Part shown: piece after piece, positions 14,781 to 17,700 of the stretch | Layout: every line of letters begins with the position of its first letter | Numbering within the stretch: position 1 is the stretch's first letter | Assembly: GCA_003345555.1 (NCBI GenBank) | Contig: PRDJ01000001.1 | Coordinates: 71,528-103,527 of the forward strand | From: Candidatus Thorarchaeota archaeon | GTDB lineage: Archaea > Asgardarchaeota > Thorarchaeia > Thorarchaeales > Thorarchaeaceae | DNA length: 32,000 nt | Direction: 5' to 3' | Translations under genes and position numbers: made by a program | The notes under the pieces: model-generated | Database searches by the model: none | The model's input: only the letters and a program-made list of their open reading frames with translations | What the model was told of the DNA's origin: nothing

Positions 14781-17700
14781 CTATGCGACTATCTTCACGG
14801 GTTTCAGATTAACGACTCTGTGTTCGCCAGCCGCTGTATCGTACTCCATGAGCCCAACCAATTCCCCTTGAGCACCGGGCTCCAGTTCAAATTCGATCTC
14901 AGCGACACTCCCGAGACCTGACTCAACGCTACCTATGGTTTGACTCTTTATGGTCTCGGTGAGGTCTGGTATCGCCAGCACAACTTGGACGTTCTGCATT
15001 GCCGTCTTTGAATCATTCCTGATTACCACCCCGAAGATGACCTTTCCTTCACGTATCTTGTATTCCACAAGTACATCCATGCCTGCTTCGAGGCCCGGGC
15101 TTGTTGGCTCCGCTGCTGTCAGGGGAGCTGCTTGTCGATGCATCTTACGGTATCGTCTGGTGGCAACCCCTGCAACGAACAGCGCGACGCCAATGCCTAT
15201 GGCGGGATATGCCCAATGCACATGAGGGTCGAAATCGAGGTTGTCGGGCAAACCGTCTCCGTCTGTATCTGGATTTAGAGGATTGGTCTTGTATACGAAG
15301 ATCTCTGCATAGTCTGACAATGTGTCTCCGTCAGTGTCCCAGTTTAGAGGATCCGTGTAATAGATGAGAGCCTCCTGACCATCACTCAGGCGGTCCGTAT
15401 CTGTGTCGTTGTTGAGCGGATTTGTCTGCCAAGTTATGACCTCCACATAGTCGGTCAACATATCTTCATCCGTGTCCTTTTCTCTGGGATCGGTATCGTA
15501 TGTCATGACTTCTTGGAAGTCAGACAACCCATCACCATCGGTATCGTCTTTCAGTGGGTCGGTGTAGTCAACCATGACCTCGCTGTAATCACTTAGGTGG
15601 TCTCCATCGGTATCATTTGAGAGTGGGTTGGTGTGGAGAACTATGGCCTCTGTATAATCTGATAACGAATCGCTGTCGGTGTCATTGTTCAACGGATTGG
15701 TACTGAATACATAAACTTCGGCCCCGTCGAGCAATCCATCACCGTCTGTGTCAGGCTTTAGAGGATTGGTGTCATAGTCATCCACCTCAGGACCGTCGAG
15801 TAGATCATCGTTGTCCGTATCTGGGTTCATCGGGCTTGTGTAGTAAACACGGAGCTCTTCTAGATTCTCCAACCCGTCATTATCGGAGTCCCACAGGGAG
15901 TCCAATGAGCCAGGATGGGTCATGTTCGTCAATGGGTTCGTACTGGTGAGAAACAGTTCTTCCCAATCGCTCAACAGATCGCTGTCAGTATCGTTTGACA
16001 ACGGATTCGTGTGGTAGTTGTTGACCTCGTCAGTGTCGCTCAGACGATCCGAATCAGTATCTTCGACCAAGGGGTTCGTCCCGTATTGCTTTACTTCGGC
16101 ATAATCGGACAAACCGTCAGCGTCAGTGTCTTTCGCCAGTGGGTTCGTAGAATATGTGTGACACTCTTCCCCATTTGTCAACCCGTCACTGTCTTGGTCG
16201 TCATTGAGGTCTGAGATTCCATTGCCATTGGTATCCTTGTTTCTCGGGTCTGTCTTGGTCAGCCAGCATTCCTCGTAGTTCGTCAGTAGGTCACGGTCTT
16301 CATCGTCTGCACCGTCTGAGACACCGTTGTCGTTGCTGTCTTGGTCCCGTGGATCCGTCTTTGTCAGATGAATCTCCTGCCAATTGGTGAGTCCATCAAG
16401 GTCCATATCCCAGTCGGCATCGGAAGTCCCGTCACCCTTGCTGCTGTAACGGAGAGGGTCGGTGAGCGTGATATTTGCCTCTTCCAGGTCGCTGAGCCTG
16501 TCATTGTCTGTGTCATTGCTCATGGGGTCTGTATGCAGGACTATCTCTTGCCCGTCGAAAAGCCCGTCAGAATCACTGTCTTCTTTCAATGGGTCCGTGT
16601 TGTAAATGTAAAGCTCCTGTCCATCAGTCAACCCGTCACCGTCAGAGTCTGGATTCAATGGCTCCGTTCCAAAGACCTTGAGCTCGTCATAGTCCGTCAC
16701 ACCATCTCCGTCAGTGTCAGCCATCGTGGGGTTCGTGTGGAAGGTTAGTATCTCCTCTCCGTCTGTCAGGTCGTCTCCGTCTGTGTCAATCGCGTTTGGA
16801 TTGGTTCCATATGAGAAGATTTCATCCCAGTCGCCCAAACTATCTCCATCAGAATCGGCTTTTAGCGGGTTGGTGTCGCTCGTAAGGACCTCATACCCGT
16901 CTGAGAGTCGATCGCCATCAGTGTCTAGCAGTGTGCAGTTTGTCTGGTATGCGTATATTTCGAGGAAGTTGCTCAACCCATCGGCGTCTTCATCGTCTTG
17001 ATCGTCTGGAATTCCGTTTCCGTTTGTGTCAGGATTTGTTGGGTCCGTGTGGCTGTTGAATATCTCATCGTTGTCGGCAAGCTGGTCATGGTCCGTGTCT
17101 GGATCAAGGGGATTAGTATGATACTTGTGAATTTCCTCGCTATCTGTAAGGGCATCAAAATCAGTGTCTGCATTCTCGGGGTCTGTACCATATGTAATCT
17201 CGTCTCCGTCAATCAGACCGTCGCTGTCAGTGTCGTTACTTGTGGGGTTGGTATGATACACCTTCCATTCTTGCCAGTCCGTCAGGCCATCTGAATCGGT
17301 GTCATTCAGACTGGGGTCAGTCCCGAGGTCAATCTCTTCCTTGTCACTGATTCCGTCTTCGTCTGAGTCTGCTTTGTTCGGATTCGTGCCGTAGTTATTC
17401 ACTTCATCTCCGTCGCTAATCCAGTCCCCATCACTATCCCAATTCGTTGCGTTTGTATGGGATGTGTACACCTCATAGTAATCCGTGAGACCATCAAAGT
17501 CAGTATCGTTCTGCCTAGGATTCGTATGATGAGTCACAAATTCGGAATAGTCACTCAAGCCATCGTTGTCCGTGTCCTCGTCAGTAGGGCTTGAGCCCGC
17601 AATGTACACTTCCATGCCATCCGATAGCCCGTCAACATCGGTATCTGGATTGGTGGCGTTCGTCTGATATCCATATATCTCAAGACCGTTCGGAAGCCCA

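Follow-up and report, generated by a model that had tools for sequence, protein, structure and literature searches.

Layout and predicted topology of a giant surface-protein gene

We analysed a 32,000-nucleotide stretch of DNA from a Candidatus Thorarchaeota archaeon (contig PRDJ01000001.1, positions 71,528 to 103,527 of the forward strand, assembly GCA_003345555.1), referred to below as the window, with attention to the C-terminal tail of a giant surface protein encoded there. According to the list of open reading frames (ORFs) and their translations, the giant occupies window positions 14781..21548 on the minus strand as a single ORF of 2255 aa, stop codon included, with the following layout from N- to C-terminus:

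21438..21524, minus strand: N-terminal hydrophobic segment, signal peptide or signal anchor (about residues 9-37, after the basic KGKRRH; Kyte-Doolittle)
20259..21431, minus strand: FG-GAP, integrin-alpha-like beta-propeller head (about residues 40-430; Pfam FG-GAP_3 2e-15, FG-GAP 9e-10)
15264..20258, minus strand: stalk of about 66 bacterial-type TSP3 calcium-binding repeats (Pfam TSP3_bac 1.4e-146)
15159..15215, minus strand: single transmembrane (TM) helix WAYPAIGIGVALFVAGVAT, the second and last hydrophobic segment of the giant, with RRYRK next
15081..15158, minus strand: juxtamembrane basic stretch and conserved linker motif T-x-A-E-P-x-S-P-G-L-E-P-G-M (alignment of 12 orthologues)
14784..15080, minus strand: predicted cytoplasmic Ig-like beta-sandwich of about 100 aa, the C-terminal end of the protein (AlphaFold2 model; homology to the Asgard IG subdomain)

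Outside the tail, Pfam gives FG-GAP and TSP3 only, with no Vps28-C, longin, PCI or other ESCRT-linked domain; the propeller region also matches BBS2_Mid and Itfg2-type propeller profiles. In the literature library that was searched, nothing relevant turned up on integrin, TSP3 or FG-GAP giants of Asgard archaea or Thorarchaeota. The 125 aa that follow the TM helix comprise RRYRK, a linker of roughly 20-25 aa and, up to the C-terminus, an all-beta domain. The original prediction, made from the letters of the window, had described just this order of TM helix, RRYRK, short linker and C-terminal domain of about 100 aa, which the translation bears out, and the interval that it gave for the domain (14784..15078) covers the folded sandwich almost exactly, as judged by the modelled strands.

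A Kyte-Doolittle scan of the whole giant finds two hydrophobic segments only, the signal-like one at the N-terminus and the C-terminal TM helix. The residues preceding this helix are acidic, those past it carry +5, and the basic stop-transfer stretch is preserved in the alignment of 12 orthologues; N-x-S/T sequons number 42 in the ectodomain and one in the tail. The predicted topology is therefore Nout-Cin, that of a putative type I membrane protein whose tail lies in the cytosol. This agrees with the inner-side location originally proposed for the domain, and nothing in the prediction places it outside the cell.

A conserved Ig-like sandwich ends the giant across a Thorarchaeota family

AlphaFold2, run with the 12-orthologue alignment, models the tail as a confident 7-strand Ig-like beta-sandwich (mean pLDDT 88, pTM 0.80), with strands at residues 15-112 of the 113-aa construct (window 14784..15122). 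The giant stops 1-3 residues past the last strand, and no TBP-like platform subdomain follows. Among the 12 orthologues, no other part of the giant is conserved as well as the tail: mean pairwise identity is 76% there, 61% in the final 454 aa of the TSP3 stalk and 44% in the TM helix plus juxtamembrane region. The linker motif is nearly invariant as well, and its T, P, G, L, E, G and M are the same in all 12 sequences. It sits outside the folded sandwich, is absent from the soluble homologues described below and may act as a short linear motif for docking or phosphorylation.

Using a profile built from the 12 aligned tails (A2), we surveyed 400 genomes of the phylum. The sandwich stands at the C-terminus of ORFs of about 2250-2300 aa in 64 of the 85 other genomes of the same family, once per genome (E ~1e-60), and in G311, a relative at the order level, it ends an ORF of 2197 aa (E 3e-17). 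Because it recurs in this position in both the family and the order-level relative, the tail domain is not a chance addition to the giant of the window.

Homology to the IG subdomain of soluble Asgard ears

In four other Asgard families, the same profile matches ORFs with E-values of 1e-10 to 1e-3 (115 of 135, 11 of 14, 3 of 3 and 4 of 4 genomes); most are about 790-810 aa long, a few shorter. These matches span the whole sandwich (profile positions ~4-110, E 5e-13 to 3e-10) and score 38 bits in one stretch. In the reverse direction, a search of the window's genome with one such protein, P0028, recovers the tail (E 5.8e-8) and finds no full-length orthologue of the soluble ~790-aa protein. Profile-profile alignment with hhalign joins the Thorarchaeota tails to 17 of these sandwiches at 97.7% probability (E 1.7e-12, 102 columns, 33% identity), whereas a control against a 4-sequence DUF11 alignment reaches 42% over 55 columns; individual tails and soluble-relative sandwiches share 25-34% identity over their full length.

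Most of these relatives are soluble. They carry a Zn-ribbon and DDRGK/UFL1/PCI-type winged helices before the sandwich and a Vps28-C-like end; in the soluble members a TBP-like platform comes after the sandwich, and often a Vps28-C bundle as well. Databases name P0028 and its ~790-aa relatives 'PCI domain-containing' or 'DUF2042'. A model of the last 344 aa of P0028, built with 26 homologues (A5, pLDDT 85), consists of a sandwich at 15-114, an alpha/beta domain at 119-243 and a bundle of helices. Foldseek searches with this model return two-part appendages as the top 5 hits and as 13 of the top 15 (COPI, E 1.2e-9 over 239 columns; beta2-adaptin, 3e-8; alpha-adaptin, 5e-8; gamma-COP, 6e-8), the other two being BBSome chains, with BBS9 best (6e-8). 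A weaker, independent line agrees with this ear link: over 28 family members, Pfam matches, all under cut-off, go to GAE_BBS1 (PF23304) in 16 (best E 5e-4; 16.9 and 17.7 bits against a 27-bit cut-off for the two matches with listed scores), DUF11 in 14, NPCBM_assoc in 11, Alpha_adaptinC2 in 9 (best E 1e-3), PTHB1_GAE (PF14728) in 3 and Coatamer_beta_C in 1 (E 0.07); the ear-type matches come from soluble members and none from Thorarchaeota tails.

Asgard multidomain proteins that combine an 'adaptin appendage region' (IG plus TBP) with Vps28-C, TPR and HTH/PCI domains have been described (Makarova et al. 2024, doi 10.1101/2024.02.06.579148), as have AP appendage Pfam domains in Asgard archaea (Eme et al. 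2023, PMC10307638). Because the tail is homologous to the sandwich of soluble proteins with this published architecture, we place it in the same family: judged by its sequence relationships, the tail sandwich belongs to the family of IG subdomains of Asgard ears, with the platform lost or never present. Archaeal adaptin-appendage domains, one of them TM-linked, were thus already on record (doi 10.1101/2024.02.06.579148; PMC10307638), and what is new here is the membrane-tethered architecture on a surface giant. A domain tree groups the tails, that of G311 included, in one clade (98/95) on a long branch and names no donor for them.

Several further observations concern the ear-type proteins themselves. 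Their distribution looks complementary, with the family of the window carrying the tail version (usually the sole A2-profile match) and the four other Asgard families the soluble ~790-aa PCI/ear/Vps28-C version. In genome G123, from another Asgard family, an 805-aa protein cut by the contig end (L019:2442-4856, plus strand) has TPR repeats, an alpha-solenoid, where the winged helices would be, followed by an ear sandwich and platform, an arrangement of solenoid before ear that is reminiscent of adaptin large subunits. A Thorarchaeota cluster of HEAT_2 plus sandwich (407 aa, TM-score 0.79) is listed in the Atlas. The window's own genome encodes three more ear-type proteins on contigs C55 and C65 (L024:49-2325, L029:631-2502 and L032:1219-2319, all plus strand), of 758, 623 and 366 aa, each with a sandwich, an alpha/beta domain of ~130 aa and a C-terminal Zn ribbon. 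The 758-aa protein is soluble, with multiple Zn ribbons; the 366-aa and 623-aa proteins are tandem neighbours on C65 and look membrane-tethered because of their N-terminal hydrophobic segments. These sandwiches show only remote likeness to the tail (hhalign 1.8%, E 0.027), and a search of the same genome with the VPS28 Pfam model gives nothing above cut-off.

A proposed docking role for the tail and its alternatives

The explanation that we favour, and consider probable, is that the giant is a single-copy, integrin-alpha-like surface glycoprotein found Thorarchaeota-wide, whose Asgard-ear IG sandwich serves as a cytosolic docking surface that couples a receptor or adhesin to the cell interior. 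The tail is shaped like eukaryotic adaptor ears, so it probably docks an internal partner: by analogy with appendage and GAE ears, the sandwich would most likely offer a cytosolic partner protein a small surface for docking, to which the linker motif may contribute. Such docking would couple a calcium-dependent integrin-like receptor or adhesin, its stalk of TSP3 repeats presumably stiffened by calcium, to internal sorting or scaffolding machinery. Candidate partners would be the frequently syntenic TPR protein described in the next section or ESCRT-linked proteins with an ear and Vps28-C. A bolder version, which seems to us quite improbable, would make the tail a cargo-borne proto-adaptor, its own coat-type ear recruiting ESCRT-linked (Vps28-C/ear) or TPR scaffolds to sort, cluster or bud membrane, with eukaryotic ears derived from such modules and later shifted onto soluble solenoid subunits.

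Direct tests for coat-ear character on the tail alone are ambiguous, and several of their results weigh against the favoured explanation. The beta-COP-specific motif that the original prediction had read in the tail found no counterpart in profile searches: none of Coatamer_beta_C (PF07718), Alpha_adaptinC2 (PF02883) and COP-gamma_platf (PF08752) matches any of the 12 tails at E<=10, and no Pfam family reaches its curated cut-off in them. Under the cut-offs lie DUF11 (4 of 12 tails, E 0.0089-0.15, 13 bits against 24.6), DUF1344 (10 of 12, best E 0.0018) and a weak match to NPCBM_assoc. A sequence search of the PDB with the tail alone yields nothing at E<=10, and a profile combining Thorarchaeota tails with Asgard IG subdomains (A4) yields only the Ig domain of lacto-N-biosidase (E 8e-4, partial) and designed armadillo repeats. 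Searched against 1.84 billion representative proteins, a Thorarchaeota-only tail hidden Markov model retrieves orthologues and DUF11-repeat proteins only, the latter by adding up 5-13 weak stretches; the soluble Asgard homologues surfaced only through per-genome searches, not in this whole-library search. In Foldseek searches with the tail model, ApaG, TRAP-beta and TG2 lead by E-value and a COPI appendage chain has the top TM-score (0.73); the fold match is not exclusive, with TGase-C and ApaG tying with appendages. The tail superposes on the sandwich subdomain of eukaryotic appendages and, as a stand-alone sandwich without a platform, on GAE structures; identity to solved ears is 9-13%. A second weaker, independent line in agreement with the ear link is a language-model feature search with the tail itself. 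It returns ten named clusters, and every one of the nine with a common Pfam family is a eukaryotic Coatamer_beta_C, COP-gamma or Alpha_adaptinC2 cluster, with scores of 0.81-0.86 and, for each of the top two, 174 of 256 features shared with the tail, values that count only as leads by the tool's own calibration.

Among other explanations, the sandwich could be a generic prokaryotic Ig-like domain (E-set, CARDB/DUF11-type), a plug or spacer that stabilises the membrane anchor and has no special kinship with ears. Such a reading fits the direct Pfam matches, which are confined to the weak ones to DUF11, DUF1344 and NPCBM_assoc, the standing of DUF11-repeat proteins as the sole non-orthologous matches in the largest search, and the TGase-C, ApaG, TRAP-beta and glycosidase Ig folds, which match as well as ears do. 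We nevertheless judge it unlikely, as the Asgard ear IG subdomain is far closer per domain (38 bits in one stretch and hhalign 97.7% over 102 columns, against 42% over 55 columns for DUF11 and the summed weak stretches of DUF11 proteins), the homologous sandwich is followed by a TBP-like platform, the two together forming a module whose first matches are adaptin and COPI ears, and a plug need not be the giant's most conserved part. A generic Ig domain devoid of coat affinity was the counter-case named by the original prediction; the affinity found is specific, though mostly transitive, running through the Asgard IG+TBP modules. Placing the sandwich outside the cell, through an inverted topology or a C-terminal segment that does not span the membrane, would make it another surface Ig domain. 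Archaeal surface proteins commonly carry such domains and the topology is a prediction, but this alternative is extremely unlikely in view of the two hydrophobic segments with a signal-like first one, the charge reversal across the TM helix preserved among orthologues, the 42-to-1 split of sequons, and nearest homologues that sit within soluble Zn-ribbon and winged-helix proteins lacking a TM segment.

Convergence offers a different account, in which the tail docks proteins and the likeness of both the tail and the Asgard IG+TBP modules to eukaryotic appendages carries no evolutionary link. Sequence links to eukaryotic families are all sub-threshold (GAE_BBS1 at 5e-4 and Alpha_adaptinC2 at 1e-3 being the best), identity to solved ears is as low as stated above, and Ig sandwiches and TBP/helix-grip folds are each common; even so, we hold convergence to be improbable. 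Returning to the docking explanation, the part of the originally proposed coat kinship that stands is homology to the Asgard ear IG subdomain, whose two-part module matches COPI, AP-2 and the BBSome first, and the cytosolic position stands with it; the beta-COP-specific motif and an exclusive fold match are not supported. What the analysis shows is the gene layout, a predicted topology, the fold, the strong conservation and the sequence homology to the Asgard ear IG subdomain, while a common origin with eukaryotic coat ears, docking and the identity of the partner are inferred. Common ancestry of the tail with eukaryotic coat ears is plausible on the strength of structure, sub-threshold profiles and published analysis.

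Neighbouring genes and a candidate partner

The giant is the last of five co-oriented genes, and a TPR gene lies downstream:

28538..29713, minus strand: ABC-2 permease (Pfam)
26835..28514, minus strand: ABC ATPase, 559 aa, with a TrmB-like N-terminus (Pfam)
22494..26834, minus strand: S8 subtilase/GIFT single-pass giant, 1446 aa, with a GIFT/DUF4350-like domain (Pfam)
21512..22507, minus strand: ABC ATPase, 331 aa, its end overlapping the start of the giant by 37 nucleotides (Pfam)
13381..14637, minus strand: cytosolic TPR protein, 418 aa, 143 nucleotides downstream of the giant (Pfam TPR)

The four genes at 21512..29713 (permease, ATPase, subtilase/GIFT giant and ATPase, in that order) upstream of the giant probably form one surface-system operon, and in G311 an ABC ATPase likewise stands directly upstream of the giant. 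Of 16 related loci, 11 (that of G311 among them) have an orthologue of the TPR gene as the next gene downstream of the giant; in the remaining five, all from one genus, it is not within 1.5 kb. Other flanking genes vary among the loci that keep the TPR gene beside the giant.

Beyond this association, comparisons of TPR proteins give generic likenesses. A TPR gene ends just upstream of the gene for the membrane-tethered 366-aa ear paralogue on C65, and its product resembles the syntenic TPR protein only generically (E 3e-6, one repeat). A Rosetta-stone argument from the TPR-plus-ear fusion of L019 fails, its best BLASTP match to the syntenic TPR protein being at E 0.59. A predicted complex of the TPR protein with the tail scored 0.00 in a run without controls and carries no weight either way. 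With generic likenesses and a complex prediction that gives no verdict, the syntenic TPR protein is therefore only a candidate partner of the tail, by genomic association.

Further out, window positions 5536-13191 hold genes for a 1116-aa GNAT-containing protein, a 484-aa ORF without a Pfam match, a D-Ala-D-Ala-ligase-like ATP-grasp enzyme, a small GNAT protein and a convergent PLP (PALP) enzyme; at locus L001, too, the large GNAT gene adjoins the TPR gene. An open-ended ORF of at least 648 aa on the plus strand (30057-32000) has no Pfam match at E<=0.001.

Significance and comparison with known systems

During vesicle formation, the ears of adaptins and COPI act as hubs for the recruitment of accessory factors, and where these ears came from belongs to the open question of how membrane trafficking in eukaryotes emerged from Asgard archaea. 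Until now, Asgard ear-like modules had been known as parts of soluble proteins linked to ESCRT. In the integrin-like surface giant, a sandwich of the ear type forms the inner end and is strictly conserved throughout a Thorarchaeota family. The tail offers a concrete, testable link from receptor to cytosol, and its defined 100 aa could serve as bait for ear ligands, which would be the first from Asgard archaea. Finding a partner would reveal a pre-coat role of ear modules; without one, the domain would be one more Ig-like anchor.

In overall layout, the giant shares an FG-GAP propeller head, a long stalk, a single TM helix and a short cytoplasmic tail with integrin alpha chains and bacterial FG-GAP/TSP3 adhesins. 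Integrins use this tail for inside-out coupling. Unlike theirs, the giant's stalk consists of TSP3 calcium repeats rather than Ig-like thigh and calf domains, its tail is folded into a domain where integrins have a short peptide, and it has no evident beta-chain partner. Members of the Pfam E-set clan (DUF11, CARDB and NPCBM_assoc) show weak local likeness to the tail near its V-x-V-x-N-x-S...N-V-x-V strands; the alignment is partial and under cut-off, and those domains are typically extracellular tandem repeats.

The closest relatives are the Asgard proteins with an adaptin appendage region, P0028 and its kin, which share with the tail a homologous sandwich sequence, the same fold (Atlas TM-score 0.80, root-mean-square deviation 2.0) and a cytosolic location. 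In contrast to them, the tail lacks the TBP platform, the Vps28-C bundle, the winged helices and the Zn-ribbon, hangs on the TM helix of a 2255-aa surface protein and bears a Thorarchaeota-specific linker motif. Precedents for a membrane-anchored archaeal ear-like domain are the methanogen 'Meth_adaptin', whose TM linker joins an appendage region to a GOLD domain (Makarova et al. 2024, doi 10.1101/2024.02.06.579148), and the Thorarchaeota ear proteins of contig C65; unlike the giant, they keep the platform and have a small ectodomain or none. Compared with eukaryotic coat ears (the gamma-COP, beta-COP and AP-2 alpha and beta2 appendages, and the GAE domains of gamma-adaptin, GGAs and the BBSome), the tail has no significant direct profile match, an identity of 10-13% and, relative to the two-part appendages, neither platform nor solenoid. 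It is set off by a linker of ~25 aa from a TM helix, and is thereby joined to the cargo-like membrane protein itself rather than to the alpha-solenoid trunk of a soluble coat subunit.

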